This document shows, piece after piece, positions 4,899 to 50,632 of a DNA stretch of 64,000 nucleotides. Every line of letters starts with the position of its first letter. Position 1 is the stretch's first letter. The stretch lies in the sequence record KJ190158; one strand, 5' to 3'. This DNA is from Escherichia phage FFH2. The position numbers were made by a program, and so were the translations under genes. The notes beneath the pieces were generated by a model. That model was given only the letters and a program-made list of their open reading frames with translations. It was not told the origin of the DNA and did no database searches.

Positions 4899-5099
4899 AT
4901 GGGCAGATGTTCTAAAGGTGGCGATCCTGTAGTCAGATACGGTGACTGGCTGGAGGTATATGATCTGGGGGGTAAGCTAGTGTATGCCTCCAGGATCACC
5001 CAAGATATGTGCTCTGATATGTTTAACAGATACCTTGCATTTAAGGCCAATATAAACCCAGACGAAATTTCCAAAATTAAAACAAGGAGAGCTAAATAA
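4899..5099 (+). CDS. hypothetical protein (66 aa)
   Basis: ORF coupled to neighbours (stop overlaps next start). Confidence 0.35.
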   Translation: MGRCSKGGDPVVRYGDWLEVYDLGGKLVYASRITQDMCSDMFNRYLAFKANINPDEISKIKTRRAK

Positions 5100-10605: not shown

Positions 10606-11462
10606 AAGTTGTAAAACGGGACGGTAGAGAAGAGTTCTATAACGGAATTAAGGTGATCAAGGCGGCAGAGTCCGCCTTACTTGAGTCTGGACATACTGAA
10701 GAAGAAGCTTACCGGATCGCCTGCGCGGTTAATGAAGTTGTTGCTAACAATCTACCAACCGACCAGTGCACGATCTCTGTAAAAAATATCCATATCCTTG
10801 TTGAAGACGCTCTTATGGATATGGGTTTAAAATGTGCAGCCAGAGAATACATCCAGTATAGGCAGACAAGAGATAATAACAGAGAGGCAGGTGGAAAACT
10901 GCTTGCAGATATTAGTGGCTTCTTGGATCGCACTTGTGATGAATTTACAAAAGAAAACGCAAATAAGCCTACCAATCATGTACACACTCATCGTGACCTG
11001 CTTGCAGGCATCCTTAGCAAACACCTTGCATCAACACAGATCCTGACAGACCGTGTCTCAGAAGAGCACAATAAAGGCTTCATCCATGTGCATGATCTTG
11101 ACTACTTGATCAGTCCGTTAACAAACTGTTGTTTGGTAAATTATCCAGATATGTTGGAAAACGGATTCAACATTGGTAACGCCCATGTCAGTAAGCCGAA
11201 GTCAATAGGGGTTGCAACAACAATCCTTAGCCAAATCTCTAGTGCAGTAGCTAGTGCTCAATATGGAGGTCAGACTATGAGCCATATTGATCATTATCTG
11301 GCACAGTATGCTGAAGCGACCTATGAGAAGAACCTTAAATTTTGCCAGGAACATTGGTTGCCAGATGCTGAGACTGTTGCAATGCAAATGACAGATAAAG
11401 ACGTATTTGACAGCATGCAGACTTTGCTCTATCAAATCAATACGTTAACCTCTGTCAACGGT
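10602..11462 (+). CDS. nrdD: anaerobic ribonucleotide reductase NrdD, exon 1
   Basis: N-terminal ATP-cone MKVVKRDGREEFYNGIKV. The frame ends ..TSVNG and is interrupted by an intron. Confidence 0.8.
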
Positions 11463-12260
11463 TAACAAACTGGCCGTTGTAAAACTCTCCTAACCTCATA
11501 AGAGGGGTCGGTAAATCCGGCTAACGGGGAACGCTAAGGCGAAAGCTATGCCAATCCCGTGACTAGTTCTTACAGGAGTTGGAACGGTTGTAACGACTAA
11601 CGAAAGGCAGAGATGCTTGACAAACATTTCTGAACCAAGTAGTGTAGAGGTTAGTTGAAATACTAACTTCGAAATGGAGAGGCTCTATGAAAAAGATCAT
11701 TCTTAATGGTGAAGAATCAAACTATGTGATTGATGAGGTTGGAAACGTATACGGAAAACGTGGAATGCTACACCCAATATTGTGGGGAGGTTATGGAAAA
11801 GGTAACAAGCATGTTAAACGCCGTTATATGTACTCTTTCAACCACAAAGGTAAAAAGATTCGAATCCAAACCTCAAGGATTGTTGCCTTGTATTGTTTGC
11901 CAGATGTCCCAGAAGACCCTGAAAACTGGGAAGTGAATCATAAAGACGGCAATACATTGAATGATCATCCGTCTAACCTAGAGTGGGTTTTGCCGGAAGA
12001 TAATAAGAGACATGCTTTCCGAACAGGGCTTTGCCCAGGCAAGTGCTATAGGAAAGTGCAGGCATACAAAGGGAAAACCTTGGTGGGTGAATATCCTTCA
12101 CTCTATGCCTGTGCAAAAGCCTTAAATTTGAACGTAGGTAACGTTCATAGGGCTATCGAAGGAAATGCCGAAGGTAAGCATCTCACAATAAAGGGTTATT
12201 ATCTTATTGAAGTAGAGTAAGAGATAGTCTGGCCCTGTGGAAACACAGGGGAGGAGACAG
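11463..12260 (+). mobile_element. group I intron interrupting nrdD, carrying an HNH homing-endonuclease ORF (boundaries approximate)
   Basis: Exon 1 ends on U (ggt). Exon 2 resumes in frame at cag act cca (QTPF) after a G. The ~800-nt insert holds a free-standing HNH ORF. This parallels the T4 nrdD intron. Confidence 0.6.
11687..12220 (+). CDS. HNH homing endonuclease (intron-encoded)
   Basis: WEVNHKDGNTLNDHPSNLEWV HNH motif. Paralogous to the ORF at 51736-52242. Confidence 0.7.
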   Translation: MKKIILNGEESNYVIDEVGNVYGKRGMLHPILWGGYGKGNKHVKRRYMYSFNHKGKKIRIQTSRIVALYCLPDVPEDPENWEVNHKDGNTLNDHPSNLEWVLPEDNKRHAFRTGLCPGKCYRKVQAYKGKTLVGEYPSLYACAKALNLNVGNVHRAIEGNAEGKHLTIKGYYLIEVE

Positions 12261-17951: not shown

Positions 17952-18191
17952 ATGTACAAGTCATTCTCAATCTACTCAAGACAGGCGAAACACTACACAG
18001 AGATCCTGATCACTCAGAAAAAGTCTGTAGAAGGTGAGTGGGAGTATCACCATAAAATGTTGCGTCCAGATTGGGTTTTTGATAGACTTATTGCTATGAT
18101 CCCTCTTGGAGAAGTATACCCTCTGACAGGTCATAGGGATGCTTGGGATTTAATTGATTACATAGATTCATTTAAGGAGCCCAGTGTATGA
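17952..18191 (+). CDS. hypothetical protein
   Basis: ATG with agagggggtc RBS. Confidence 0.4.
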   Translation: MYKSFSIYSRQAKHYTEILITQKKSVEGEWEYHHKMLRPDWVFDRLIAMIPLGEVYPLTGHRDAWDLIDYIDSFKEPSV

Positions 18192-18586
18192 AGATTGAGA
18201 TCACTAAAGAAGGTAAGAAAGTGTCTGGAGACTATGCAACAGTAATTCGAGATTTAATGTTTGAAACCACCAAGTTCGGCACATCTAAAGTTGGTCAAAC
18301 TGTTAGTGTGCAAGGCAATATCACCACAGGGGAGAAGATAATCATCGTGATCAAAGGACAAGATCCTGTGGAAGGAACAGTGGGCCGAGGAGGCTACCTG
18401 TGCATTTCTGAAGAACCGCGCATGCTGGTTGCTGATAACTCCACAGGTAAAAAGCGGGTATGTAACACGGACGAGGTGATGATTATCTATCCAGTCAATC
18501 CAGATGATCCGGCAACATGGATTGTGGGAAATGAAATCTTCTCTTTAGAAGAGTTATCCTTTCCAGCTCCGCGCTCTGTTCAGTAA
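18188..18586 (+). CDS. hypothetical protein (132 aa)
   Basis: ORF; coupled to upstream gene. Confidence 0.45.
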   Translation: MKIEITKEGKKVSGDYATVIRDLMFETTKFGTSKVGQTVSVQGNITTGEKIIIVIKGQDPVEGTVGRGGYLCISEEPRMLVADNSTGKKRVCNTDEVMIIYPVNPDDPATWIVGNEIFSLEELSFPAPRSVQ

Positions 18587-18625
18587 TAATTTATCTTACC
18601 AGGGACGGTAGAAGTAGGAGGTAGC

Positions 18626-18859
18626 ATGAAAGTTAAATTTCTTACAGATTTAGGGTACCCTTCCTTGGTTGACTGCATTGGTAAAATTGTGGAAGCAAAA
18701 CGGCTATCTGCAAACGATAATGTTGTCATGGTTAAGGGAAAAGATTTATTAGCTGCAGGTGCAGAGTCTGGCAGGATCTCTCCTGACTATACATATTACT
18801 TATCTTTAAGTAATCTACCAGAACGAGGCGGCAAAGGCCTTGAAGTTGTGGAGGAGTGA
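18626..18859 (+). CDS. small acidic protein, MKVK-family paralog 1
   Basis: N-terminal MKVKFL... and C-terminal LEVVEE match the family spanning 22286-26674. Confidence 0.5.
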   Translation: MKVKFLTDLGYPSLVDCIGKIVEAKRLSANDNVVMVKGKDLLAAGAESGRISPDYTYYLSLSNLPERGGKGLEVVEE

Positions 18860-19401
18860 CAGGTATGCTTCTGATTAACTGGGAAGACCTCTATGGGGAC
18901 AAAGACCCTGTTGCGTTTGTTGATCGTAGATGGAGATACACTGAAGAACAACTGGCTGCAAAAAATTTAACTGCGAAACGCAGAAAGATCATCCAGTGCA
19001 AGTACAAATACGCACAATTTGCTGCAAAAGTGTCTCCACAAATCGAGAGTTTTGTACTTAAATTGTATGACGAATACCTCAAGTTCAAATTGGATTTTGT
19101 ACAGGTGTACCGTGCACAGGTACGCCCAGATACCAACATATGTAGATGGAAGGTTGTTTGTGACGGTAAAGATTTGCCGCTCAGCTTGACAATTGAGTGG
19201 CGTTATGGGTATCATGAGTGTGGTCTGTATGATACTTGGGATGTCATTGTAGATCCTGCTAAGTACCTGAACACAGAGGAGCTGGAATATATCAATAAGG
19301 TTATTCTCGATATGTTTTTCAGATACACCCGTGAAAACTCTGAGAAAGAACGGGATGATTTTCTTGACACCATCAGCAACCATCTGCAGTATACAATTTA
19401 A
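18856..19401 (+). CDS. hypothetical protein (181 aa)
   Basis: ORF. Confidence 0.45.
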   Translation: MTGMLLINWEDLYGDKDPVAFVDRRWRYTEEQLAAKNLTAKRRKIIQCKYKYAQFAAKVSPQIESFVLKLYDEYLKFKLDFVQVYRAQVRPDTNICRWKVVCDGKDLPLSLTIEWRYGYHECGLYDTWDVIVDPAKYLNTEELEYINKVILDMFFRYTRENSEKERDDFLDTISNHLQYTI

Positions 19402-19419
19402 CCTACAAAGGGAGGGCTA

Positions 19420-19644
19420 ATGAGTATAAATGTTGTGCTAATAGGCTACCTGGTAATAGCCGTTATAACAGCGGTATTCTTGACAGGTATATGCATCGTG
19501 TCTAGACGAAAGGTGAAGTTTGATGATTTTATCACCATCATCACTGCTGCACCTTTTTGGCCTATTGTTATCTTCATCGTAATAATGTGCCTAGTTGATT
19601 ACTACAAGAATATTCGTAAGGAGAAAAAGGAGAGTAGGGATTGA
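19420..19644 (+). CDS. small membrane protein (2 predicted TM helices)
   Basis: Hydrophobic segments IGYLVIAVITAVFL and WPIVIFIVIMCLV. Confidence 0.45.
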   Translation: MSINVVLIGYLVIAVITAVFLTGICIVSRRKVKFDDFITIITAAPFWPIVIFIVIMCLVDYYKNIRKEKKESRD

Positions 19645-19875
19645 GACCGCACCTAAAACTGTTTATACTGTTCTTAAAGAGATTGCGTTCTACGCAGATC
19701 TTAGCCAGGCACCTTTATGGGAAAAGAGCATGTATTTAAAATGGTGCGTTAATTTAGGGAGACCTTCCAGTGTTTCAAGCCATGTTTATTGAGATGCTAT
19801 CTGGGGTATTGTTACTGGTAGCCATCTTAGGTGGTGCAGTTCTGATGTATAACTATCTTGAAAAAGGAGACAGCA

Positions 19876-20061
19876 ATGGCAAAAAATAAATCTTTAGAGC
19901 AGGCTGAAAACCTTCTCCACGAGCTGGTAAAGGAGTGGAAAGTTGAATACTCAGATTTTAATGCACGAGAGGGTGAAGATTATTGGCCTACGGAGCGCTC
20001 AGAGGGCGAATGGTATCAAGATTTTATAGAGTGGTTATATCAGACGTGCGATGAGGGGTGA
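19876..20061 (+). CDS. hypothetical acidic protein (start ATG 19876)
   Basis: aaaggagacagca RBS. A 35-aa hydrophobic peptide ORF (19783-19890) overlaps upstream. Confidence 0.4.
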   Translation: MAKNKSLEQAENLLHELVKEWKVEYSDFNAREGEDYWPTERSEGEWYQDFIEWLYQTCDEG

Positions 20062-20519
20062 CGATGTTTGTTAAATATGTAAAAACGTGCCTCAACAGTC
20101 TTGGCAGAGAGCATTGGTACACCTTACTTGAAAAAGGAGAAATTTTAACAAAATCTGGAAAGATAACTTTGATACCCTTGGACGATAAAGACCCGTCACT
20201 CCTTGTCATAGATGATTACGTTACAGGTGTGTCGTACGAGGTCTCTGTGGAGAGGTTAATACGCAGAGCTGGCGGCCCTTGTGATCAAAGAGAGTATGTT
20301 TTCGATTCCGTTACAGAGAGGGATCATCCGTCTTTAATGTTCAGGATGGTAATCAGGGATATGAGGTCATCTATAGATAGGATCGTAAAGGACATTAAGG
20401 AACCTTTTAGGGTAAAAGTTAAGAAGTTTTTTGATTCTAAGATTAACATACTTGCTGTTGTGCTAGGCGTAATTCAACTTCTGTTAATTTTGCACTATTT
20501 TGAACTGTTGTTTAAGTAG
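20058..20519 (+). CDS. hypothetical protein with C-terminal TM helix
   Basis: ORF; C-terminal ILAVVLGVIQLLLIL. Confidence 0.45.
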   Translation: MTMFVKYVKTCLNSLGREHWYTLLEKGEILTKSGKITLIPLDDKDPSLLVIDDYVTGVSYEVSVERLIRRAGGPCDQREYVFDSVTERDHPSLMFRMVIRDMRSSIDRIVKDIKEPFRVKVKKFFDSKINILAVVLGVIQLLLILHYFELLFK

Positions 20520-20579
20520 TGTGCAACAAGGCACAAAGGATGTGCCATAATTAAACAAATTAAGAAAGAGGTAGAGAGA

Positions 20580-20927
20580 ATGTCAAAGATTAAATCGATA
20601 TTAATGTGGGTAGCTGTTGTGGCTTTTGTAGGATACTGGACTTGGGAAACTGAATTAAAAGATATCGGATATACCAGTCTTGAGAGCAAGGCATGCATTG
20701 GCATAACCGATGCATTCAGGCAAAATGCTATGGATCACGAATGTGTCGATGCAGATATAGATGAGAAACTGTCTAAGGACAAGGATTTTTACCATGGTCA
20801 TGCCTTGCTTGATAGTGGTGACACTGTAGAATTCTGGTCGTGGTTCCGTGAAGATGGAACAATAAAGACAGCAGTAAAGATTTCCAACAAAGAGTTAATG
20901 CTGTTGCAGCAGAAGGAGGTGCAATGA
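20580..20927 (+). CDS. hypothetical protein with N-terminal TM/signal anchor
   Basis: N-terminal ILMWVAVVAFVGYW. Confidence 0.45.
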   Translation: MSKIKSILMWVAVVAFVGYWTWETELKDIGYTSLESKACIGITDAFRQNAMDHECVDADIDEKLSKDKDFYHGHALLDSGDTVEFWSWFREDGTIKTAVKISNKELMLLQQKEVQ

Positions 20928-21211
20928 TTTGGATATCCTACACTGATGGCACCATGCTGTATACTGCAGGTACTAGGTATGAAGTTCAGGAGGACGATAA
21001 AAAATTTATCGTAAAAACATTTGACAAGGACGACAACCTTTTGTTAGAATTGACTTACAAGGTTGGGGAGGTATCTAGCATCCAATTGGATTGCGGTCAT
21101 AAAGATAACCCGCTCAAGAAACCTGGGGTAGGTAAAGCTTCAGAAGAACGCCTGTCTCGTATTGCAGAAAGCGTTTCTGCACAAAAATCTAAGAAGAGGA
21201 TTAGAAAATGA
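20924..21211 (+). CDS. hypothetical protein
   Basis: ORF coupled. Confidence 0.4.
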   Translation: MIWISYTDGTMLYTAGTRYEVQEDDKKFIVKTFDKDDNLLLELTYKVGEVSSIQLDCGHKDNPLKKPGVGKASEERLSRIAESVSAQKSKKRIRK

Positions 21212-21408
21212 GTGACAAAATTCTTAAATTTAATACCTACTATGAGAATGATTTGAACGATCTGTATTATATAGTGCGTAGCGAAAACCCAAATGTAGTA
21301 CTGTTTTGCCGAGAACCTTTCAAAAAAGAGGAGATTGAATCTACCATGGATGTGGATCAGATTTCACACCTGCTGCTCCTTGGATCATTAAAAGAGGCAG
21401 TATTCTAA
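21208..21408 (+). CDS. hypothetical protein
   Basis: ORF coupled. Confidence 0.4.
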   Translation: MSDKILKFNTYYENDLNDLYYIVRSENPNVVLFCREPFKKEEIESTMDVDQISHLLLLGSLKEAVF

Positions 21409-21427
21409 ACCAGGATGGAGGGTTTTT

Positions 21428-21613
21428 ATGAAGCACTATTGTCTGTCTGGTAGAATGGGTGCAGATTGTGATTGGGTTTTCTTAAAACTTGTCAGCATTC
21501 GAGAGTCCATTTCAGAGGAAGAGCAAGAAAGTGAGCTAATGTCCTGGATCAACCATTACGGTAACACTTTTCGGCATGTTAAGGTAGAAGAGTTGCCAAG
21601 TGAGGCTGATTGA
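21428..21613 (+). CDS. hypothetical protein
   Basis: ORF. Confidence 0.35.
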   Translation: MKHYCLSGRMGADCDWVFLKLVSIRESISEEEQESELMSWINHYGNTFRHVKVEELPSEAD

Positions 21614-21708
21614 CTATGATTGCATCAATATTAACGTTTATGGGTGGCGTGGCATTCGGATTCATTGTTTGCCTGTTTATAGTGATTATGTCTATGCGAG
21701 GCTGAATT

Positions 21709-22005
21709 ATGAAACTTTTTGAGTGGTTTAAAAAGTTTAAATATAAAGCTGTAGCCATCGTGCCGTGGTCCATTCAGTGGGTTGATGAAGGTGGTCTACC
21801 AATACCTGGTGACAAAGATACTGGGTACTGGATTATGATGGAGAACGGGTTTGGAAAGCGAAAGTATACGTGCACAAACTCTACTCGATCTGCGCTTAAT
21901 AGAGTGCCTGGTTACAAACTTATGGTTGTGTGGAAAATGTCAGGCGTGCCTCCAGCTAATGCTCAATTTCTTACTGACAATCCGACCACGGTAGAGGAAG
22001 ATTGA
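21709..22005 (+). CDS. hypothetical protein
   Basis: ORF. A 29-aa hydrophobic peptide ORF (21616-21705) precedes it. Confidence 0.4.
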   Translation: MKLFEWFKKFKYKAVAIVPWSIQWVDEGGLPIPGDKDTGYWIMMENGFGKRKYTCTNSTRSALNRVPGYKLMVVWKMSGVPPANAQFLTDNPTTVEED

Positions 22006-22289
22006 TAATGAAAAAGATTAACAGTGGTGAAGTTGAGTTTAAACTTGTCGGGAAAGGCACTTACTGGGAAGTTCGTCAAAAGGTATATTTGTTCGGTCTT
22101 ATTCCCTATTGGTCTAAATTCTACTGGGGAGCTAACGAGTGGGGAAGATACGCCACCAAATCAATGGCACTTATTGGTATAGCAGAGTACATTGCAGCCA
22201 GAGATAGGGTTGGAGACACTTATTACTATACTGCGGACGATATTCGTAACAGTGTTTACGTCCCACAACCACCTGATGGAGACCGTTGA
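22002..22289 (+). CDS. hypothetical protein
   Basis: ORF coupled. Confidence 0.4.
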   Translation: MIMKKINSGEVEFKLVGKGTYWEVRQKVYLFGLIPYWSKFYWGANEWGRYATKSMALIGIAEYIAARDRVGDTYYYTADDIRNSVYVPQPPDGDR

Positions 22290-22513
22290 TGAAAGTTAAA
22301 GTTTTAGATTCAAGCTTCTATATTGGTCAGGAGCCTTTAGTAGGAAAAGTGTTTACTGCTGTCCCTAACGAAGATTACCCTGACCTTTTAAAAATAAAAG
22401 GAGCAGATCTTATTGCCGCTGGTGCATCTCAGGAATGCTTTGACAGTCAGTGGACCTACAACTTTGCCCTAGGTGAGGATGTAGAGGTAGTGGAGGACGA
22501 TCATGAAGGTTAA
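22286..22513 (+). CDS. small acidic protein, MKVK-family paralog 2
   Basis: MKVKVLDSSFYIGQ... LIAAGA ... VEVVEDD. Confidence 0.5.
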   Translation: MMKVKVLDSSFYIGQEPLVGKVFTAVPNEDYPDLLKIKGADLIAAGASQECFDSQWTYNFALGEDVEVVEDDHEG

Positions 22514-22757
22514 AATTCTTGATTCTAACGTCTACTTGGGACAATCCTTCCTGAATGGAAAGGTCGTTCCTGCGGTATACTTTGAAGGGTTGCCGTGGGA
22601 TGATCCTGTGCGGCAACATCACAGTTATGTAGGCCACAACGTGGTGTTTATCTTGGGATCAGACCTGATCACCGCTGGTGCACCTGAATATTATTTCGGG
22701 GAAGAGTCCTACTATGCCTTTGGGGTAGGGTCAGATGCAGATATTGTAGAGCTGTGA
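22503..22757 (+). CDS. small acidic protein, MKVK-family paralog 3
   Basis: MKVKILDSNVYLGQ... LITAGA ... DIVEL; similar to 22286. Confidence 0.5.
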   Translation: MKVKILDSNVYLGQSFLNGKVVPAVYFEGLPWDDPVRQHHSYVGHNVVFILGSDLITAGAPEYYFGEESYYAFGVGSDADIVEL

Positions 22758-22769
22758 TGGGTAACCGTT

Positions 22770-23168
22770 GTGAAAAATAAACTGTTTAAAGTTACAATGA
22801 AAATTCGCGGGGCTTGGAGCGTAAAGCAAGGGCGTATTCCAGAATTTGAGAAAGACTTCTACGTAGTCTCCACCTCGGAGGAGGCTGCATGCTGGCAGGC
22901 TGGCTATGCCTATGCAAGAACCTGGTACGAAGGGTACCAGACTGGGGGCTATGACGGAGAAATTATCAGCAAGGGTGTAGAAGAAATTAATGTGTTGACA
23001 AGTGAAAAAGTTTTTGTTATAGTGCATCCAGATTCCAGAGTGAAGCATTACTGGAATGCCAGAACAAAAACTTGGACACCGTTTGCAGATTCTGCTACGC
23101 CACTTTTAAACCAGAAAGCTCTTGACTCTGCCCCAAGTTATGGGGTTGTTGAAGAAAAGCTAAACTGA
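22770..23168 (+). CDS. hypothetical protein; paralog of 24975-25370
   Basis: Shared VIVHPDSRVKHYWNARTKTWTP / VMRHPHSNIAYYWDVLNNEWTP block. Confidence 0.45.
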   Translation: MKNKLFKVTMKIRGAWSVKQGRIPEFEKDFYVVSTSEEAACWQAGYAYARTWYEGYQTGGYDGEIISKGVEEINVLTSEKVFVIVHPDSRVKHYWNARTKTWTPFADSATPLLNQKALDSAPSYGVVEEKLN

Positions 23169-23185
23169 AACAGTGAGGTGTCACC

Positions 23186-23476
23186 ATGATGGATTTAATT
23201 CTAAATATTGATAACGCAGGAGAGTTTAAAGACGATGGTGTAACAAGCATGGACAAACCCTGCTCTGCTAAGGTTGACTCAAAATGGACCTACAAGTTTG
23301 ACGGAGAGATCTTCGCAAATGATGAGAAGGTTGTAGATGCTGCAGCCATTTTAAACGCTCTAGGGTACGACCCTGTGAATTCTTTGATCAAGGATCCTGT
23401 TGAGTTTGCAGAGTATGTTCGAAAAATGGCAGATCTTGCTGTGGATATTTTAAAAACTATCGACAACAAGCTGTAA
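23186..23476 (+). CDS. hypothetical protein
   Basis: ORF with gaggtgtcacc RBS. Confidence 0.4.
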   Translation: MMDLILNIDNAGEFKDDGVTSMDKPCSAKVDSKWTYKFDGEIFANDEKVVDAAAILNALGYDPVNSLIKDPVEFAEYVRKMADLAVDILKTIDNKL

Positions 23477-23482
23477 AAACTG

Positions 23483-23511
23483 TTGACACAACGCTTCAGA
23501 TTTAGTATCAT
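23483..23511 (+). promoter_or_regulatory. sigma70 promoter (TTGACA-17-TATCAT) followed by stem-loop 23520-23540
   Basis: Consensus -35. Hairpin aagagggtttggttccctctt lies between the promoter and the HPF gene. Confidence 0.55.
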
Positions 23512-23558
23512 TGTTTTCAAAGAGGGTTTGGTTCCCTCTTCTTTAAAAGGAACACGTT

Positions 23559-23876
23559 ATGCAAATTGAAATCACTGGCAACGTAGAAATCACTGAAGGT
23601 ATGGTGTCTTTCATTTCCCACAAAATGTCTAAGCTGGAGCGTTTGCACCCCTCTGCCAACTATGCACGTGTGAGTGTAAAAGTTGAAAATGATCACCAGG
23701 AAGTTATGGCGCTCATTTTTGACAATTCTGGAAAAGAAGTTATTGCCAGGGCTAAAGGTAGTGATGCTTACGAGGCAACTGACCGTATGGTAGATGTTGC
23801 AGCACGTCAGCTGGCTAAATGCGGTGGAAAGAAAGGTAAGGGGAAAGGCAAAGTAAAGATTGACTTTGGAGAATGA
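23559..23876 (+). CDS. hpf: ribosome hibernation promoting factor / RaiA (YfiA) homolog
   Basis: MQIEITGNVEITEGM...KLERLHP...VKVE...GKEVIARAKGSDAYEATDRMVDVAARQLAK aligns with the bacterial HPF/RaiA signature (MQLNITG..EIT..L.., A.G.D.Y.AID...DKL.RQL.K). Confidence 0.75.
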   Translation: MQIEITGNVEITEGMVSFISHKMSKLERLHPSANYARVSVKVENDHQEVMALIFDNSGKEVIARAKGSDAYEATDRMVDVAARQLAKCGGKKGKGKGKVKIDFGE

Positions 23877-24013
23877 GGTGCTACAATGGGCGTGATTAAG
23901 AAACTAGTCCCAAATGTAGAGATTGCATGCTTTGAAATTATGTTTGCAATCGCAGTTGTAGTTAATGTGTTAGGTTACGGCTATTAATATCAAATAATTG
24001 AGGAGACCTCTAA

Positions 24014-24283
24014 ATGAAAATTAAATTATTCAAAACTGAGCTGGCAGACAAAAACTGTGGACTGGTTGAAGGCATGATTGTCGAAGCACGACCAGTTGAC
24101 TATATGAAGGTGGTTCGTGATGCCCTGGGTGAAGGTTTTGATCTGATGGAGCCAGCTCTGCGAGAAGATGTTATCGAGATGGCTAAAAAGCACACACCTG
24201 AAGGAATGGTGGTGTTTGTTGCACCAGGTAACGGAGAAGAGTTGATTGTAACTCCGGATGTGTATGAGATTGTAGAGGAATAA
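24014..24283 (+). CDS. small acidic protein, MKxK-family paralog 4
   Basis: MKIKLF... C-terminal YEIVEE. Confidence 0.45.
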   Translation: MKIKLFKTELADKNCGLVEGMIVEARPVDYMKVVRDALGEGFDLMEPALREDVIEMAKKHTPEGMVVFVAPGNGEELIVTPDVYEIVEE

Positions 24284-24374
24284 TCCTGCTTGGATTAGCA
24301 TACTTCCTCGACAAGGAAGGTTTGTAATTATTTGTGGGAAAGGAATCCCAATCTCTTACCATAGGTGATACTAT

Positions 24375-24638
24375 ATGATTGTTTATTTTAAAACTTCAGG
24401 TGGATACCCTGATTCTCAAAGCTTGATCGGAAAAACGTGCACAGCATACTCACCTCTTGATGAGGAGGTAGGCGATATTCTACGAAATATGTATCGGATT
24501 GATCCCCAAGAAGCCTTTGATCAAAACCTTGTATTTGTCAAGGGCTCAGACATGAAGTCTTTGGGAGCATTCCCTGAAGCAGATGATGATGCCGTTTATT
24601 CGTTCATGACCCCTTTTGAAGCTATGGTTGTCGGGTGA
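24375..24638 (+). CDS. small acidic protein, family paralog 5
   Basis: YFKTSGGYPDSQSLIGK...; acidic; family-like. Confidence 0.4.
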   Translation: MIVYFKTSGGYPDSQSLIGKTCTAYSPLDEEVGDILRNMYRIDPQEAFDQNLVFVKGSDMKSLGAFPEADDDAVYSFMTPFEAMVVG

Positions 24639-24642
24639 TAAT

Positions 24643-24975
24643 ATGAAAGTACGCTTTATTGGTGAAACAATTCCTGTGCATCTCCGGTCGCCTGAAGATT
24701 CTGCAGATCTTGCATCTCAGAAGGCGAGAGGTTATGATAAGAAAGTAATCTCAACCGATGTAGAACTTGAGGCTACTAGTCTACCTGACCCTGCTGCATT
24801 CTTTAATCATTATGGATACTATTTCAGCAATCTGATGAATATCGGTGAGCTTGTGTTTATTAGTGGTGGAGAAATTGTTAGCAAGCTTGGCGGCGATCCG
24901 GATGTCTTTCATGAAACCTGTCCTTTTGCATTTGTGGTAGGTTCAGATGTGGAAGTTATTGAGGAGGTGCGGTAA
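24643..24975 (+). CDS. small acidic protein, family paralog 6 (start MKVRFIG)
   Basis: C-terminal VEVIEEVR. ATG 24643 preferred over 24616. Confidence 0.45.
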   Translation: MKVRFIGETIPVHLRSPEDSADLASQKARGYDKKVISTDVELEATSLPDPAAFFNHYGYYFSNLMNIGELVFISGGEIVSKLGGDPDVFHETCPFAFVVGSDVEVIEEVR

Positions 24976-25370
24976 TGGTAAGCCTATACCGTGTTGAGTA
25001 TAGCTCAGATACTGTGTACAACGTAAGAAGCAAAGATCGCAGCGACAGAGTGCAAGAAATGTATGTTCTTGCCGACAGTCCGTTATCTGCAGCGTTCAAG
25101 GCAGGGGCTCTTGCATCTCGTTGGAAATTTGAAGGCGGATCTTTCTATGAAGAAACCCTTGAAGATTCTGTTGTTATTTCTTCTGTAGAGGTTTCAGATG
25201 ACTACGAAGGGAAAAAGTTCGTAATGCGGCACCCACACAGCAACATTGCGTACTACTGGGATGTTCTGAACAACGAGTGGACCCCAGATCTTCAGAAGGC
25301 TACTGTGCTAACACCGTTTTTGGCAGATAAGTTCCCACCAGAAGGTAATTTATCCGCACTGTTTCAGTAA
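24975..25370 (+). CDS. hypothetical protein; paralog of 22770-23168
   Basis: Shared HP.S...YW.....WTP block. Confidence 0.45.
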   Translation: MVSLYRVEYSSDTVYNVRSKDRSDRVQEMYVLADSPLSAAFKAGALASRWKFEGGSFYEETLEDSVVISSVEVSDDYEGKKFVMRHPHSNIAYYWDVLNNEWTPDLQKATVLTPFLADKFPPEGNLSALFQ

Positions 25371-25387
25371 TTTTCTTGCACACAGGT

Positions 25388-25416
25388 GTTGACAACACCA
25401 ACCCTGTGTGAAATAA
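25388..25416 (+). promoter_or_regulatory. sigma70 promoter (TTGACA-17-AATAAT)
   Basis: Consensus -35 embedded in the imperfect palindrome cacaggtg..ccctgtgtg. Confidence 0.45.
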
Positions 25417-25446
25417 TACCTTCATCTTAACAAGACGGGAGACTGA

Positions 25447-25707
25447 TTGATGAAGATTAAACTGAAAAACCTTGAAATGGCAGAGATTCAGGATGGTGTT
25501 GATTTCCGCTCTAAAGATGGTGACATCTTAGAGGTAAATCTTCCAACCTACGAGCTGATTAAAGGTTTTGGCAACGTTCAGGAAGAGGATATTCCAGAAA
25601 TTCTTATGATGTTGATTCTTGACGGAACTGTGTTTGTAGGTGAAGGTGAGAACGCTATTGCAATCCCAGGCCATTTTTATGAAGTAGTTGACGAAGAGGT
25701 GCTGTAA
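25447..25707 (+). CDS. small acidic protein, family paralog 7
   Basis: MMKIKLKNLE... C-terminal EVVDEEVL. Confidence 0.45.
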   Translation: MMKIKLKNLEMAEIQDGVDFRSKDGDILEVNLPTYELIKGFGNVQEEDIPEILMMLILDGTVFVGEGENAIAIPGHFYEVVDEEVL

Positions 25708-26058
25708 ATGAAAGTAGAAATTACCGGTTTTGATGTGAATGTGGTTCCGGAAGATATTTTAGCTAAACTTCCAGAAGGTTTTGGTAACGGCGTTGTGGTG
25801 GATGCTGTTCCTCCTACCAAAGACATTCTGCTGCAGTATGGTGTAGCAGAGGAAGATGTCGATAAAGTTCTTACAATGATGGCAATCGATCGTGTTGTCG
25901 TTGTTAAAGGTCTCGATAATTTTGAGAGTGATCCACTGATTATTCGTGGAGATGACTACAAAATCATCGATAATGAAGGCCAAGAGTTCTATGAGCCTTG
26001 TGCAGAAGATATTCTTAACTTATTACTGGAAGCAGGCACCGAAGAGGAGGACGAATAA
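25708..26058 (+). CDS. small acidic protein, family paralog 8
   Basis: MKVEITGFDV...; highly acidic C-terminus. Confidence 0.45.
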   Translation: MKVEITGFDVNVVPEDILAKLPEGFGNGVVVDAVPPTKDILLQYGVAEEDVDKVLTMMAIDRVVVVKGLDNFESDPLIIRGDDYKIIDNEGQEFYEPCAEDILNLLLEAGTEEEDE

Positions 26059-26387
26059 TGAAGATTGACCCGTTACTGAAGGCTCGTGCAGAAAAAGCGT
26101 ACACCATTAAGTTGACCAACTTGGTTCCTACTTGTCATCCGGATGTAGGTTGGCCCGAAGGTTTGGTGGAGGGAACTGTAACAGCTGCATACCTTCCTAA
26201 CATCAAATACCTCATGGAAATCTTGGAGCTGGATGAGGAAACGGCAGAAGAGTTCCAGTTGGACATGAAACAAAGTGGGACTCTGGTTATTCACGGGTGG
26301 TATAATACTAAAGATGCAGAAGACCCTCTGGTAACTTCTAATCTGGCATATGAAATCTTAGGGCCTTTGAACCTGGAGGAAGACTAA
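26058..26387 (+). CDS. small acidic protein, family paralog 9
   Basis: MKIDPLLK...LNLEED. Confidence 0.4.
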   Translation: MKIDPLLKARAEKAYTIKLTNLVPTCHPDVGWPEGLVEGTVTAAYLPNIKYLMEILELDEETAEEFQLDMKQSGTLVIHGWYNTKDAEDPLVTSNLAYEILGPLNLEED

Positions 26388-26674
26388 TGAAAGATCTGGT
26401 TAAGATTAAGATTAAAGATACCAATGGAGAACTCAGTCATTTTGGAATTAATGATGGTGACGAGCTGATCGCACACCTGCCTACCAAGGAGGTTGTAAGC
26501 AAAGCAGTTGCCGGAGAAGAAGCTGCAATGCAGGCTGCAGGTGTGGATGAAAACTATGTAGCTATGTGCATGTGCCGAGATCAGGTTGTTCTGTATAAAG
26601 CGTATCGACCAAACGGAGCCACGGAGTGGCTTGTATTCCGACCCGAAGGATATGAAATCTTAGAGGCACTATGA
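26387..26674 (+). CDS. small acidic protein, family paralog 10
   Basis: MKDLVKIKIKD...EILEAL. Confidence 0.4.
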   Translation: MKDLVKIKIKDTNGELSHFGINDGDELIAHLPTKEVVSKAVAGEEAAMQAAGVDENYVAMCMCRDQVVLYKAYRPNGATEWLVFRPEGYEILEAL

Positions 26675-26763
26675 TAAATCTTGCCAAGGTTGCAACGGCA
26701 CTGTTAATTATTTGCTGGTCAGTAACCTTAACACTGTGTCTTGTATTTCAGTGAGGTGCTTGT

Positions 26764-27027
26764 ATGAACATCCTGATGTGGGTTATAGCAGTGGCGTTTG
26801 TTGCATGTTTTTGCTGCTGGGTTGCGGTGAGGATTTCTGTAGCTACCCTTCGGAAGTTGGGGTTCTCAGAATGGGATATTAATATCCTTTCTTTTCGCAA
26901 TGAAACAATCTCAGCCGCCCTGCTTTGTAAGAAATTTAAGTGGGAACCTTGTGAGGTCATGAGCTATCTAAGAACAGGCGATATCCCTGAAAGATTTAAA
27001 AAAGTTCTTGACGGCAAGGATAAATGA
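26764..27027 (+). CDS. small membrane protein
   Basis: N-terminal ILMWVIAVAFVACFCCWVAV. Confidence 0.4.
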   Translation: MNILMWVIAVAFVACFCCWVAVRISVATLRKLGFSEWDINILSFRNETISAALLCKKFKWEPCEVMSYLRTGDIPERFKKVLDGKDK

Positions 27028-27182
27028 CAGTATAGTGACTAACAAGAGGTGAGGGGTGACTGATTTTACTGAAGCTTTAATGATGGCCTTGTCTGTTTTA
27101 GCGCTATCGGTGTGTTTTGGGGCGTTATTCACATCTCTGGTTAAAGTTTTACATACAGTATTATTACCCAAGGAGCGCAGTA

Positions 27183-27434
27183 ATGACGAAGATTGACTTG
27201 AATGCTGGTGATCATGTTGTTGTCAAATGCATTGGAGATTATCTTGGATTCACAATCGGCAATACTTACGAGGCGGTAGTGGCGAAGGTTTATCATGATA
27301 AAGTCCTCAGTCTTGTATTTGACTGTGATGATGACGGAGATGACCGTTACGTCTGTGAGGTGCTGGCTCGTGACGATAGTGAAGACCAGAAATTCCTGGT
27401 TATTGAACTGAACGGTATTTTTGTAGAACGTTAA
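27183..27434 (+). CDS. hypothetical acidic protein (start ATG 27183)
   Basis: aaggagcgcag RBS. A ~38-aa hydrophobic peptide ORF overlaps upstream. Confidence 0.4.
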   Translation: MTKIDLNAGDHVVVKCIGDYLGFTIGNTYEAVVAKVYHDKVLSLVFDCDDDGDDRYVCEVLARDDSEDQKFLVIELNGIFVER

Positions 27435-27462
27435 TTTAAAACAACATAAGGAGACTCTTACT

Positions 27463-27768
27463 ATGGCTAAATCTAAAGTTGAACTGTTCACCTCTCTTCC
27501 TTCTGACACTGCAGAGCGTGATCGCCTTCGCAAAACAATCGAAGAACTGGTGGAACTCCAACTTCAGATTAAAGATCTGAAAGATGCCATTAAGGATATC
27601 ATTCTCGTTGAGAAGCAGGATCACCTGTATTCTCCTAAATTCATCAAATCTCTGGTTGCTACCGAGTTTGATATTCGCTATGAGGCTGAAAAACGTCGAG
27701 CTAAAATCGAAGAAGAGGTTGAGCACATGTCCGAGGCAGACATTCTGTTCAAACGCTCTGTAGAATAA
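27463..27768 (+). CDS. hypothetical coiled-coil protein
   Basis: aaggagactctt RBS; heptad-rich sequence. Confidence 0.45.
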   Translation: MAKSKVELFTSLPSDTAERDRLRKTIEELVELQLQIKDLKDAIKDIILVEKQDHLYSPKFIKSLVATEFDIRYEAEKRRAKIEEEVEHMSEADILFKRSVE

Positions 27769-27773
27769 TGACA

Positions 27774-27803
27774 AAGAGGGGGGCTTGGGCCCCTCTTTTT
27801 ACT
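27774..27803 (+). terminator. rho-independent terminator
   Basis: aagaggggggcttgggcccctctttttact. Confidence 0.65.
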
Positions 27804-27823
27804 ATCTATGGAGGAGATTTAAG

Positions 27824-28156
27824 ATGGGTATACCGATCACTGTAAAAGAATTGAATGAACGTGATGCAGGTGGTCTATGGCCTGCACGAAAAATACGCTG
27901 CATCCGTATGAAAGAGAACCTTGAGCATCTTGAGCAACAGAAACGGATTGAGGTTGGCGATATTTTCGAAGTATTTTATTCTGATCGCCGTAACTGGGAA
28001 ACCATTCAACCTTCCGGTTTTGTTCTTGCTAAGCTTGACACTGGAGAAGTGATTGTTCCTGGGTTGGATATTGTCTTCGAAATTATACAGGAGTGGGATC
28101 CGGACAAGATTAGATACGAAGAGCTATTCGGTGAAGGTATTATCAAACCTGTGTGA
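27824..28156 (+). CDS. hypothetical protein
   Basis: ATG with tggaggagat RBS. Confidence 0.45.
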   Translation: MGIPITVKELNERDAGGLWPARKIRCIRMKENLEHLEQQKRIEVGDIFEVFYSDRRNWETIQPSGFVLAKLDTGEVIVPGLDIVFEIIQEWDPDKIRYEELFGEGIIKPV

Positions 28157-28164
28157 GGTGGATT

Positions 28165-28464
28165 ATGTCTACAAAGGCGGCTAAATACTCCTATATGCCA
28201 TCAACCTCTGCAGAGGTAGACTTTAGTTTCGATGTGTTTCCACTGTTTGAGGTGGTTCTGGCATACCCAACAATACTATCTACTCCTGAATCACTTGTGC
28301 CTGTTAAGTTGCAGAACGCTATGCATTACATGCACTACAACAACAAATGTAGGCACAGATGGTGTCAGGACGAGGAAAAAGATTTGGATAGTTTGAGAGA
28401 TTTTGACAGTCACCTTTTGACACCTTTCAGCTACTCCAACCTTGATAAGCCCTCGTGGGTATAG
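28165..28464 (+). CDS. hypothetical protein
   Basis: ATG with gaggtggatt RBS. Confidence 0.4.
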   Translation: MSTKAAKYSYMPSTSAEVDFSFDVFPLFEVVLAYPTILSTPESLVPVKLQNAMHYMHYNNKCRHRWCQDEEKDLDSLRDFDSHLLTPFSYSNLDKPSWV

Positions 28465-28488
28465 CAAAATATCAAATTTAAGACACCT

Positions 28489-28516
28489 AGGACGCTCTGT
28501 GGCGTCCTTTTCTTTA
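28489..28516 (+). terminator. rho-independent terminator
   Basis: aggacgctctgtggcgtcct followed by tttctttat. Confidence 0.65.
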
Positions 28517-28824
28517 TCTGGTGCACGATTGCATACCTTGGGTAGTTAATCTCATTACAGAGCGTTTAAGAGCTCCCTACAAACAACTCCATATTTCGAG
28601 CGTAGCGAGAACGCACGTCCGTTTTGACCCAAATCACCATACGCTCGGATTTTAACCAAACCCTCGCGGCGTTTCTGTGGACACATTACCGATCCAGTGA
28701 TAGTATCCACACATAGTTTGTAGAATATGGAGTACACAATGAGAACATTGTCCGAAGTTTTAGTGGTGATCCTGATGATCATTACGTCCATAGCGGCTGT
28801 TGCCGGAATACTCACGGGTGGAAC

Positions 28825-29037
28825 ATGATCAACACACATGCATCTGAAGAGACATCCGAAGGAGTTACCATCTGTCCCTTGGCTGAGCCAGTGAAAGAGG
28901 AAAACTTCGATTCTGAAGATTATCCATCTCCGTCCCAGGTAGATCCTGAGGCTGATGACCTAACGTGGGAAGACATCGTAGATATCTGGTTCTCTATTAT
29001 GCCTGAGCACGAAGAGTTCAGGGGTGGTAGACTATGA
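28825..29037 (+). CDS. hypothetical acidic protein
   Basis: ORF. Preceded by a 29-aa hydrophobic peptide ORF (28738-28827) and a TGGACA-17-TAGTAT promoter-like site (28677-28705). Confidence 0.4.
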   Translation: MINTHASEETSEGVTICPLAEPVKEENFDSEDYPSPSQVDPEADDLTWEDIVDIWFSIMPEHEEFRGGRL

Positions 29038-29156
29038 AGCACCGAGCCCACACAGGTTCCTCATACTAAAGCATGGCCTGAAGAGGCAAACGTGCATAAT
29101 TCCTGCGCATTTGGACGTATAATCCTGTTCACACTCTCATTTCCAGAGGAGATTTT

Positions 29157-29372
29157 ATGAAGATAGAAATATTTGGTGGAGCTGACAACACTCGTGGCCT
29201 GATTTACCTTGAATTTGATGAATCATACCTGCCAGAGGTGTTAAATATAGACTCTGTTGCTGAGGCTTTGGGAGTAAACCCTAAAGAACTCCACTCTTGT
29301 GCTGAGATCGATGGTTGGGAAGAGACCATGAACATTGATTTCAGTGAAGTAGAGGATGAACCGCTGGACTGA
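29157..29372 (+). CDS. small acidic protein (MKIEIFGG..., family-like)
   Basis: gaggagatttt RBS. Last + strand gene before the ORF-free region. Confidence 0.4.
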   Translation: MKIEIFGGADNTRGLIYLEFDESYLPEVLNIDSVAEALGVNPKELHSCAEIDGWEETMNIDFSEVEDEPLD

Positions 29373-30823
29373 CACACAATTAGCTGCCCGGCTAAAGTGC
29401 TGGAAGCACCTATAACACATCTTTCAACTAAATTTCCTACCACCACAATCACTTACCTCCCACACATGACTGTTTGCTTGTTTAGTGAGCAGTCATGCCT
29501 TGACATTCTTGCCTATCCTGATAAAATTAAGTTCTTCTCTTTTCTTTTACCGAGTAATTCGGGTTTTCTGTTCTCTTCGGTTTGAAGGGGTATAGAGATA
29601 CACCTGAGTGAACAGGGTGAACAACCGAACATTTGGCTATGGCATTAGCATGGCGAAGCGGACGGGTGACGAAAGAGGGGCCGGAGGACACCAGTCACTG
29701 CCATATGATATATGGGTGATAACCTGAAGAGTCTGAATAAGTGTTTAAGTACCAGTCAGAGGAAAAGGTGAATGGTAGCCGAAGGGGGAGGGGGGTTTCT
29801 TGTATCTTTAATTTGTATATTATGTATACACTTGTAAACCAATCTCATCTGAATTTGTTTACCACACAAAGTGGATAGGGACAAATATTACCTATTAAAC
29901 TTGAATTATTTATAGAAATACCACAACACCACTTAAGTCTTTGATTTTACACACAAATCCTACAGATATTCACCCTCCATATTTAACATACCTGTAACAT
30001 ATTCCATACCCTACCTGACCGATCAATTCACCCAACTACATCCCCATATTTTCCCTGTCTGTACTACCCCTGCCCCGCCGGGAGTCCCGTCATATCTGGC
30101 TTTCCAGCAAATATCACACCCACAAATATCATTGCCTGAAGAGGGTTTCATCCCATAATACATGCCTTACCTGAAGAGCGCTTCATACACCACGTAAATT
30201 TTTTAATTGACCCCCTCCCCGCCGCCGGAGAGGTTGGCTTTTCCCACACAGACCTGAAGAGTCAGCCAGAAATATCTGAACAGGTCCAGCTATGCCACGA
30301 TTTTGTGCTTGTCCTACAGGAGTGCCTCCCTGTCAGGAGCCGGTAGCGACTGGAGTGCTGCCAGGCGGACGAAATGGGAATCATTCTCATTCTTATAACA
30401 ATTCTCAAATATCGAGGCAGTGAGGCAAATTAATAGGTGAGGCCGTTCACACAATGGCACAACATTTGCAACCTATCTTGTGGGAGTGAATGAGAATACC
30501 TATCATTGTGAGAATAGTTATCATTACGGGCAATTTAACATAATACCCATTATGCGCACCACTGGCGATCCATACAGGGATTGATAACATGGGTTACTGT
30601 TTACACACATAACAATTATATTTCTTACTATTTGTGTGGGATATAGTTAGCAGCCGATAGATTAGATATTGACCTGTAGACTTCCAACCGTCCAGACGTC
30701 TAAACGCCCACACAACAAGGGTTATACATACACAACTGAATGTAAACAGGGCCGCAAAAATGCTACCATACAAGCTTGTAAATTTTTCATGCAGCACTTG
30801 ACAAAGAGGAGGAAAACTTGTCT

Positions 30824-30894
30824 GACACTTTAGACACAATAGTGACATAATATGACATAATGGTGACACTGAACATAATTGACATGCCTGACTG
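30824..30894. repeat. helically phased array of TGACA pentamers (about 8 copies at ~10-11 bp spacing)
   Basis: TGACA/AGACA at 30824, 30833, 30844, 30854, 30865, 30881, 30890 (plus 30800) in an ORF-free region. Confidence 0.6.
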
Positions 30895-30928
30895 TTTACA
30901 TAGCTAACTATTCATACAGAAATGATAA

Positions 30929-31161
30929 GCCATGCCATTCGTTTGCATGATAATAATTAACTTGTTTACAATAGATGACATAATATAAAAGCAGGGCAAC
31001 TATTAGAAGATCTATAGTTGCCTTGCTTGTTATGTCATGATTAACTAAATACAAGGCAACTATGATCTGATTAATAGTTTGCAGACAAACTATCACGGGG
31101 GTGATGGTTACTGCTTTTATATTATGTCGCGACTCCGTCGCGCCATGCCATTCGTTTGCAT
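30929..31161. repeat. nested repeat structure: 20-bp direct repeats flanking 18-bp inverted repeats that enclose caactat inverted iterons
   Basis: gccatgccattcgtttgcat occurs at 30929-48 and 31142-61; gacataatataaaagcag at 30977-94 pairs with ctgcttttatattatgtc at 31111-28; ggcaactat..atagttgcc at 30995-31022. Confidence 0.6.
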
Positions 31162-49028: not shown

Positions 49029-49389
49029 TCATCAGATCTGCCATAGCGTCACCCACGAAGAGAACAACCACATCGTTTACCGCGTCAGCATCATCTTTGT
49101 TGACGTTGCTGAATTTAGGACACACAGCAATAATCATATAGACACCGTTACCCACCTGAACTGTCCGTGTGGTGCACATCATGGCGGTATTTGTGCCTTC
49201 TTTGAAGGCGAAGCCTTGAAGACGCTCCTCTAGAGTGTTACCGGTAGACTTCAGAAGCGCCAGCTCGTCCAAGGCATAGATGATATCTCCGGAAGTTAGT
49301 GTTGCCTTGCCATCAGACACCATAATCACTCCATCAGCACCGTCAAGCTTAGAGGCTTCAAAGATATCAATATCCCAAATATTTTTCAT
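49000..49389 (-). CDS. hypothetical protein (129 aa)
   Basis: ORF. Confidence 0.4.
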   Translation of the reverse strand: MKNIWDIDIFEASKLDGADGVIMVSDGKATLTSGDIIYALDELALLKSTGNTLEERLQGFAFKEGTNTAMMCTTRTVQVGNGVYMIIAVCPKFSNVNKDDADAVNDVVVLFVGDAMADLMNAGEAANED

Positions 49390-50454: not shown

Positions 50455-50632
50455 GGGTTGTGTTGTTCACTGCACCGCAGTAAATGGAGTATCCCAGCCC
50501 ATTAGAGTGCAGAAACCACGGCGTTCCGAAATTATCTTTCACGTAGACATCGCCGTTGCTTGTAAAGGGCCAATATTCTTCGCCAAGGGTAAAATACCTA
50601 CTCATACCTTCAGCAAGATACTTTACTTTCAT
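50438..50632 (-). CDS. small protein, KD..G..W(F/Y)L family member 1
   Basis: YVKDNFGTPWFLHSNGLGY. Confidence 0.4.
   Translation of the reverse strand: MKVKYLAEGMSRYFTLGEEYWPFTSNGDVYVKDNFGTPWFLHSNGLGYSIYCGAVNNTTLAEFV

Follow-up and report, generated by a model that had tools for sequence, protein, structure and literature searches.

Are the ten small open reading frames (ORFs) between positions 18,626 and 26,674 of a 64,000-nucleotide stretch of Escherichia phage FFH2 DNA (sequence record KJ190158; the whole stretch is referred to here as the window) members of one family, and do they evolve rapidly? The original prediction described them as a single tandem expansion of about ten acidic paralogues, with a common MK(V/I)K start, a central G(A/S)DL(I/L)(A/T)AG block and an acidic VEE ending, and suggested that they mark a rapidly diversifying specificity module. 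Our analysis revealed that the ten genes, designated A to J, form two families of five by sequence rather than a single ten-member family. Family 1 comprises A, B, C, E and F, and family 2 comprises D, G, H, I and J. The products of both are predicted to be SH3-like barrels, and the copies appear to be old and individually maintained.

By sequence comparison, the window is that of a Vequintavirus, an rV5-like myophage of E. coli. Its 18000-30000 segment gave megablast matches to 123 phage records, the best being Escherichia phages PDX, O157 typing phage 5 and rV5, with 97-98% identity over the full length; 114 of the 123 records contain at least 80% of this 12-kb query at 90-99% identity. All ten ORFs were recovered where they had been placed, with the TTG openings of three replaced by likelier ATG starts that match the rV5 annotation: 22289 rather than 22286 and 25450 rather than 25447, each one codon 3' of the TTG, and 24643 rather than 24616. 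The rV5 RefSeq record labels the counterparts of all ten genes 'hypothetical protein'.

Two families of five

All-against-all blastp of the ten proteins gave two clusters, not one; B and C, for instance, are 40% identical (E-value 5e-15). The products of A, B and C match the PHROG family phrog_5009 end to end (residues 1-74/83; E-values 1e-32 to 1e-38), gene E matches it weakly (1.2e-4), and F and all family 2 genes do not match it. A profile built from A, B and C was searched against the 467 six-frame ORFs of at least 40 aa in the window, and it recruited genes E (1e-6) and F (6e-5) and nothing more. In leave-one-out searches with hidden Markov models (HMMs), the omitted member ranked first every time among the roughly 460 non-training ORFs, with E-values of 1e-14 to 1.5e-5 for family 1 and 4e-6 to 1.6e-3 for family 2. 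Single-sequence searches within family 2 are weak: phmmer links G and H at 1.3e-4, and a G+H profile reaches I and J at about 0.01 and D at 0.2-0.3. Deeper profiles of 37 and 17 sequences each found exactly their own five genes, the next match having an E-value above 2, and F aligned to the deep family 1 profile with an hhalign P of 4e-14. The all-versus-all and HMM comparisons proposed with the original prediction thus upheld homology within each group of five and gave nothing significant between the groups (hhalign P 0.06-0.0011, probability at most 20%), which argues against one family of about ten.

The features by which the ten had been grouped fared differently. The GxDLxxAG block is clear in the alignments of A, B and C, degenerate in E and F, and absent from D, G, H, I and J. 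Both families have the MK(V/I)K start, and it also occurs in unrelated neighbours, namely the ORFs at 18188 (MKIEITK) and 29157 (MKIEIFGG). With regard to the acidic ending, in at least six cases the terminal GAG-GAG (Glu-Glu) codons double as the Shine-Dalgarno sequence of the coupled next gene, and this dual-coding constraint can make unrelated proteins alike at their C-termini. The genes ending at 18859, 22513, 24975, 25707, 26058 and 26387 finish in Glu-Glu or Glu-Asp through GAGGAG or GGAGGA, which is the Shine-Dalgarno sequence of the following gene. Given that the E-x-E-V-V-E-E ending is kept in distant homologues of the wider family 1, it is also a family trait there. The ORF at 29157, previously put forward as a probable further member, ranked only 18th in the leave-one-out search (E-value 15), and hhalign aligned just 11 N-terminal columns of it.

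Predicted folds and the relation between the families

Structure prediction, also named as a check on the original prediction, gave an SH3-like barrel for both families. The AlphaFold2 models of B (predicted local distance difference test score, pLDDT, 91.7) and D (pLDDT 92.1) have an identical strand order. The B model comprises b1 (residues 2-5), b2 (21-26), b3 (33-37), a short helix (38-43), b4 (56-61) and b5 (65-69), and the D model comprises b1 (2-5), b2 (22-27), three helices (30-60), b3 (66-69), b4 (76-79) and b5 (84-88). In these models, strand 1 corresponds to the conserved MK(V/I)K(V/I/L) N-terminus and strand 5 to the (Y)E(V/I)(V/I)E C-terminus, to which a tail is added. For both families the prediction, made with high confidence, is a five-stranded antiparallel beta-barrel that can be superposed on SH3 and KOW structures. 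Family 2 carries a helical insert of about 30 residues between strands 2 and 3, and the inserts of E and F are at the same place.

The array proteins share 4-25% sequence identity with SH3, KOW, PsaE and retroviral integrase C-terminal domains, and the Pfam SH3 and KOW models gave no match at an E-value of 1 or below for the ten proteins, nor at 0.1 or below for 37 family 1 homologues. They differ from other SH3-like small barrels by a helix and a long loop that separate strands 3 and 4 in family 1, and by an insert of three helices at the equivalent of the n-Src loop in family 2, and they have neither the polyproline-binding signature nor a basic surface. They also lack the alpha-helix that precedes the barrel in Sm/Hfq-like proteins, as both models open with strand 1 at residue 2, and Pfam LSM does not match any of the ten.

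A search of BFVD with the B model returned many unnamed proteins from many phages, with template modelling (TM) scores of 0.7-0.86, and no characterised protein; the second-best structural match was the Shigella phage CM1 orthologue of E. Three of these neighbours, A0A514CYF5, A0A514CYE9 and A0A514CYG1, have nearly consecutive UniProt accessions and are probably encoded side by side in a single other phage; several copies of the B fold would then occur in a second phage.

The comparisons between the two families are suggestive, and none is significant alone. The alignment by hhalign gave a P of 0.06 over 10 columns, of 0.017 over 27 columns from strand 1 to strand 2 with the deep family 1 profile, and of 0.0011 over strands 2-3 after removal of the inter-strand insertions, with probabilities of 3-20%. 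When 38 neighbouring gene profiles were ranked against each family profile, the members of the other family clustered near the top: among 33 neighbouring profiles, family 1 genes ranked 2, 4, 5, 6 and 11 against the family 2 profile, and family 2 genes ranked 1, 2 and 5 against the family 1 profile. The ORFs at 29157 and 18188 rank near the top as well, and what they have in common with the families is the MKIEI start only.

Conservation of the copies

All ten genes are present, in the same order and as one-to-one counterparts, in each of five other Vequintavirus genomes (rV5, Aya, AlexBoehm/Bas56, isim and JEP1). The pooled pairwise ratio of nonsynonymous to synonymous substitution rates (dN/dS) of the array genes is 0.05-0.35 with a median of 0.09, compared with about 0.10 for 24 neighbouring genes, and dN does not differ between the array and its neighbours (p 0.5); all ten ORFs thus evolve in the manner of coding genes. 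The highest of the ten values, 0.35, is that of G. A divergent uncultured relative, represented by a 20-kb locus on metagenome contigs (L005-L007) of which the best isolate covers just 28% at 87%, carries exactly five plus five genes in synteny, at protein identities of 35-90%. Between this relative and the window, the median identity is 55% for the two families and 59% for their neighbours (Mann-Whitney p 0.36).

Since the five-plus-five arrangement extends to the divergent relative and dN/dS is low, the duplications are old and each copy is maintained. The sequence comparisons indicate that the duplications predate the split of Vequintavirus from the uncultured relative, and that each copy is kept as a one-to-one orthologue under purifying selection. 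Rapid diversification of these genes therefore finds no support, and the comparison of copy number among related phages gave a constant number with one kind of exception. This is a B/C hybrid of 70 aa (P0014), which replaces B and C at positions 5001-5213 of both L015 and L016, two metagenomic rV5-like assemblies from different samples with contigs of 133 kb and 79 kb. It has the N-terminus of B and the C-terminus of C, with the junction inside the shared GADLIAAGA motif, a structure that points to unequal recombination between tandem paralogues.

Several irregularities of single copies were also seen. One homologue, P0036, looks like C with an internal deletion. P0087, from a 657-bp metagenome contig, is a 98-aa chimera in which the C-terminal half of I follows an N-terminal half that is unrelated (Pfam PF24132); it arose either by recombination or during assembly. 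In rV5, J is split into gp148 and gp149 (L001 9889-10159) by two 1-nt insertions, as seen in the nucleotide alignment, and it is intact at 95 aa in the window and in the four other genomes; the split would reflect either sequencing errors or a pseudogene.

Distribution of homologues

The original prediction also held the array to be lineage-specific, and as multi-copy sets both groups are indeed confined to the rV5-like lineage. A tblastn search of 50,697 phage records with B matched Vequintavirus only, at 84-100% identity, and a tblastn search with the distant homologue P0106 gave no match. In profile searches of 5.8 billion proteins, both groups occurred almost only on rV5-like contigs of up to about 140 kb. 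The exception is the family 1 homologue P0030 (75 aa, 49% identical), which lies between the Q antiterminator and holin genes of lambdoid E. coli prophages. When 1.84 billion representatives were scanned exhaustively by HMMER with the family 1 profile, 45 matched at an E-value of 1e-3 or below, about 35 of which are small proteins of the same pattern. In three homologues (P0103, P0104 and P0127), a single chain contains the domain in two or three tandem copies. The giant repetitive proteins P0093, P0123, P0126 and P0128 matched the family 1 profile in short stretches only, and these matches were assumed to be spurious.

In Morganella and other prophages, homologues lie between RecT/YqaJ or Erf/SSB genes and the integrase gene, and adjoin NinX and an MT-A70 methylase. 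Others occur in a small-ORF cluster of a lytic phage and in a block of small hypothetical ORFs of the RB49-like phage Phi1. The prophage loci hold a single copy, as judged from a search of the ORFs with the family profiles at L003, where no neighbour of the homologue belongs to either family, and from the gene lists at L008 and L009. Given these single copies, family 1 appears, on sequence evidence, to be a five-fold expansion, specific to the rV5-like lineage, of a broader uncharacterised accessory family (phrog_5009 and relatives), members of which otherwise occur singly, as small accessory genes, in prophages of the lambdoid and P22-like kinds and in RB49-like T-even phages. For family 2, no relatives were detected outside the rV5-like phages.

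The pattern MKVKxL...GK.v.A...G.DLi.AGA...Y.F...EvvE is common to A, B, C and phrog_5009, together with the weaker relatives phrog_8603 and phrog_13367. PHROGs places E, F and the family 2 genes in separate, mainly rV5-like families (phrog_13920, 13661, 11868, 12359, 12155, 12457 and 12794), and records neither function nor paralogy.

Genomic context and neighbouring genes

The coordinates of the array genes and of other features are given in Table 1. Gene A is isolated, about 3.4 kb upstream of the other array genes. Translational coupling, which had been proposed for most of the array, is borne out for B/C (11-nt overlap), for E/F/Q (gaps of 4 and -1 nt) and for G/H/I/J (0, -1 and -1 nt). 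Two sigma-70 consensus promoters, P144 and P150, are annotated in rV5, and a further consensus match lies at 23860-23887, ahead of D. The predicted P144 unit comprises HPF, a 33-aa ORF, D, E, F and Q, so that HPF, a ribosome hibernation factor, would be co-transcribed with D, E and F. The predicted P150 unit comprises G, H, I, J and four more small genes, and is ended by a terminator at about 27780.

Table 1 Features of the array region and other paralogues in the window
Feature	Coordinates	Strand	Size	rV5 counterpart	Remarks
A, family 1	18626..18859	+	77 aa	gp122	phrog_5009 E-value 6e-36; leave-one-out rank 1, E-value 4e-6; dN/dS 0.10
B, family 1	22289..22513	+	74 aa	gp135	Minimal SH3-like barrel, modelled; phrog_5009 E-value 2e-38
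C, family 1	22503..22757	+	84 aa	gp136	11-nt overlap with B; short strand 2-3 insert; phrog_5009 E-value 4e-32
P	22770..23168	+	132 aa	gp137	Paralogue of Q; follows B-C
P144 (rV5), sigma-70 consensus promoter	23483..23511	+		annotated	TTGACA-17-TATCAT; upstream of HPF, D, E, F, Q
HPF/RaiA, ribosome hibernation factor	23559..23876	+			PF02482 recorded on orthologues; mid-array
D, family 2	24014..24283	+	89 aa	gp141	Predicted SH3-like barrel, helical insert at residues 30-60; modelled
E, family 1	24375..24638	+	87 aa	gp142	Strand 2-3 insert; HMM E-value 1e-6; leave-one-out E-value 5e-8; dN/dS 0.06
F, family 1	24643..24975	+	110 aa	gp143	Long strand 2-3 insert; starts 4 nt past E; HMM E-value 6e-5; leave-one-out E-value 1.5e-5
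Q	24975..25370	+	131 aa	gp144	Paralogue of P; follows E-F
P150 (rV5), sigma-70 consensus promoter	25389..25417	+		annotated	TTGACA-17-AATAAT, extended -10; upstream of G-H-I-J
G, family 2	25450..25707	+	85 aa	gp145	First gene behind P150; leave-one-out E-value 2.3e-4
H, family 2	25708..26058	+	116 aa	gp146	Acidic C-terminal tail, net charge -21; leave-one-out E-value 3.9e-6; 0-nt gap after G
I, family 2	26058..26387	+	109 aa	gp147	Start overlaps H stop; leave-one-out rank 1, E-value 1.6e-3, weakest member
J, family 2	26387..26674	+	95 aa	gp148/gp149	Leave-one-out E-value 1.1e-5
ORF 29157	29157..29372	+			Formerly proposed member; member by no test
Tandem paralogues	49389-49721 / 49725-49979	-			E-value 4e-8; common motifs AF(R/K)DCT...(I/F)KDD(Q/E)GD
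Marginal paralogue	50438-50632	-			Versus 50629, E-value 0.016-0.024; each other's top match
Tandem paralogues	50629-50856 / 50853-51227	-			E-value 3e-4 to 1.3e-3

Several Vequintavirus records (e.g. MN850597 isim_201) label D a 'sigma 54 modulation factor', that is, an HPF/RaiA protein. We rejected this assignment: D has no Pfam match at an E-value of 1 or below, lacks an S30AE domain (Ribosomal_S30AE, PF02482) and does not resemble the true HPF at 23559-23876, and the label is probably an annotation carry-over from phage APCEc02.

The other duplications that had been noticed are also real, with the exception of the 50438 gene, which is marginal. P and Q are related by phmmer at an E-value of 3e-9 with 28% identity, and the segments B-C-P and E-F-Q repeat the order of two family 1 genes followed by P or Q. 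This repeated order and the P/Q paralogy hint at an ancient three-gene segmental duplication. At L005, the divergent relative has a different 106-aa gene at the position of P, and an extra 98-aa gene (11389-11685; PF27050, Phage_P22_Y8K6) between Q and G. For the minus-strand paralogues (49389, 49725, 50438, 50629 and 50853), no Pfam family was found above threshold.

At about 29400-31000, the GC skew changes sign and coding density falls, which marks where the rightward transcription block gives way to the leftward one. A tRNA scan of the whole window found no genes. Eighteen records named 'Campylobacter phage' (MG0656xx; host given as Campylobacter jejuni or Campylobacter) match the window, those listed among the matches at about 97% identity, and are probably mislabelled or contaminant assemblies.

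Discussion

The analysis supports a description in which two old paralogous families, both with a predicted SH3-like fold, are kept at five copies each in the five other Vequintavirus genomes and in the divergent relative, and we consider this structural and evolutionary part highly probable. With regard to function, we tentatively propose that the barrels would be small protein-binding modules of the cytoplasm, each of which sequesters or modulates its own host protein, with one target per paralogue. The basis is their anatomy as small single-domain barrels, together with acidity, host-type promoters and the placement of homologues among small accessory genes in prophages and T-even phages. 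The sigma-70 consensus promoters and the operon-like block shared with HPF and small genes would fit early or middle expression driven by the host RNA polymerase. Most of the proteins, which range from 74 to 116 aa, are strongly acidic: nine of the ten have an isoelectric point of 4.05-4.8, and A of 5.4; given this acidity, direct binding of nucleic acids would be unlikely. Adjacent copies may act as hetero-oligomers, as the tight translational coupling and the homologues with two or three fused domains suggest. T7 Gp2, T4 AsiA, Ocr and Arn are small acidic phage inhibitors of host proteins, and the array proteins resemble them in size, acidity, cytoplasmic location and placement among non-structural genes; neither in sequence nor in fold was a relationship detected, so that the analogy is one of mode of action only.

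Some published observations bear on this proposal. According to the main text of the rV5 genome paper, genes 82-163 form a single rightward block that includes nucleotide-metabolism genes, and gp133 is the sole protein of this region that it names as a virion protein (PMC3606486). None of the ten array proteins is among the virion proteins named there, and the same text mentions neither paralogues nor the ten array genes (PMC3606486). Our literature search found no Vequintavirus transcriptome or functional study.

Several points weigh against the functional proposal. Neither experiment nor homology supplies functional evidence: searches of Pfam, NCBIfam and PDB sequences with the ten proteins and the 37-sequence family 1 profile assigned no function, nor did PHROG annotation. 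No known anti-defence protein appeared as a neighbour in the PDB searches by sequence and by fold. Most neighbouring genes encode acidic proteins too, which means that acidity is not distinctive of the array. The timing of expression would follow from consensus promoters only, and such promoters are reported all over the genome in the rV5 paper (PMC3606486). The hetero-oligomer idea would follow only from coupling and domain fusions in distant homologues. We regard this functional part as possible, at clearly less than even odds, and estimate the probability of the whole explanation, two old SH3-like families with a host-protein-binding role, at roughly 60%.

Whether the two families are ultimately one is an evenly balanced question. 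All ten may derive from a single SH3-like ancestor, family 2 having gained its helical insert and lost the GxDLxxAG helix: the predicted folds and strand order are alike, the inserts occupy the same loop, the B and D models match many of the same PDB chains, the genes of both families are interleaved in one cluster, hhalign places structurally equivalent strands in register, and the reciprocal ranks are high. The individual comparisons nevertheless fall short of significance, the signal is partly the generic MK(V/I)K start, and no recognisable Vequintavirus family 2 protein is among the 50 best BFVD neighbours of the B model, many of which are unnamed. Moreover, small phage proteins very often adopt SH3-like barrels, which makes convergence or independent acquisition plausible. 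An extension of the single-ancestor idea, in which coupled neighbours (B/C, E/F and G/H/I/J) form hetero-oligomers that capture host machinery, possibly the translation apparatus in view of the co-transcription with the hibernation factor, seems to us quite unlikely; if it were true, the array proteins would represent a host-takeover factor of a new class, modular and made of several subunits, in large virulent phages. The shared features could instead be compositional or positional artefacts of A-rich second codons, Glu-Glu codons in ribosome-binding sites and small acidic ORFs, with no real family behind them. The double use of the C-terminal GAGGAG, the MK(I/V)E/K starts of unrelated genes and the ORF at 29157, which is similar by eye and fails every test, are all compatible with this. 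It is refuted for the links within each group by the leave-one-out ranks, by the grouping of A, B and C already made in PHROGs and by dozens of distant family 1 homologues that keep the internal residues Y11, G38, G45, Y57 and F59. We give almost no credence to it as a full account, and find it fair for part of the resemblance between the groups.

The idea of rapidly diversifying anti-defence or host-range modules, with copies that turn over between related phages, has some points in its favour: the genes are multi-copy, lineage-restricted, small and acidic, they lie in an accessory region, the B/C hybrids attest to recombination inside the array, and homologues are found within prophage regions of small unannotated genes, which in lambdoid phages frequently harbour host-modulating genes. 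It is nevertheless unlikely, because gene content and order are identical in the five genomes and the divergent relative, neither dN/dS nor divergence exceeds that of the neighbours, and most of the matching phage records retain the region at high identity. Rapid turnover aside, the array proteins may still have an anti-defence or host-factor-binding role. It is also conceivable that the array proteins act on translation together with the co-transcribed hibernation factor, for example as KOW-like or ribosomal-protein-like barrels that dock on ribosomes. The position of D, E and F downstream of the HPF gene and P144 fits this, but the Pfam KOW models do not match, strongly acidic proteins are poor binders of rRNA, and the prophage homologues are not adjacent to translation genes, all of which makes this role very improbable. 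The explanation that we prefer remains that of two old SH3-like families of putative host-protein-binding modules.

Large virulent phages carry multi-copy families of small genes in their accessory regions, such as the small novel ORFs of T4-like genomes. The array genes are likewise short, coupled and unannotated and lie behind host-type promoters, and a family 1 homologue is found in such a block in phage Phi1. They differ in that their copies are fixed and conserved rather than variable between relatives. The feature is thus real but ordinary: two conserved, uncharacterised paralogous families in the accessory block of a well-sampled phage genus. It corrects the over-reading that genes present in many copies must evolve fast. 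Cocktails for phage therapy and biocontrol of E. coli O157 and other strains make wide use of rV5-like phages, yet about one third of the genes of these phages, including the whole array block, are unannotated. Here, ten of these genes are reduced to two conserved families with a predicted SH3-like fold, one of which also occurs in prophages and T-even phages, and they offer a compact and testable set of targets.

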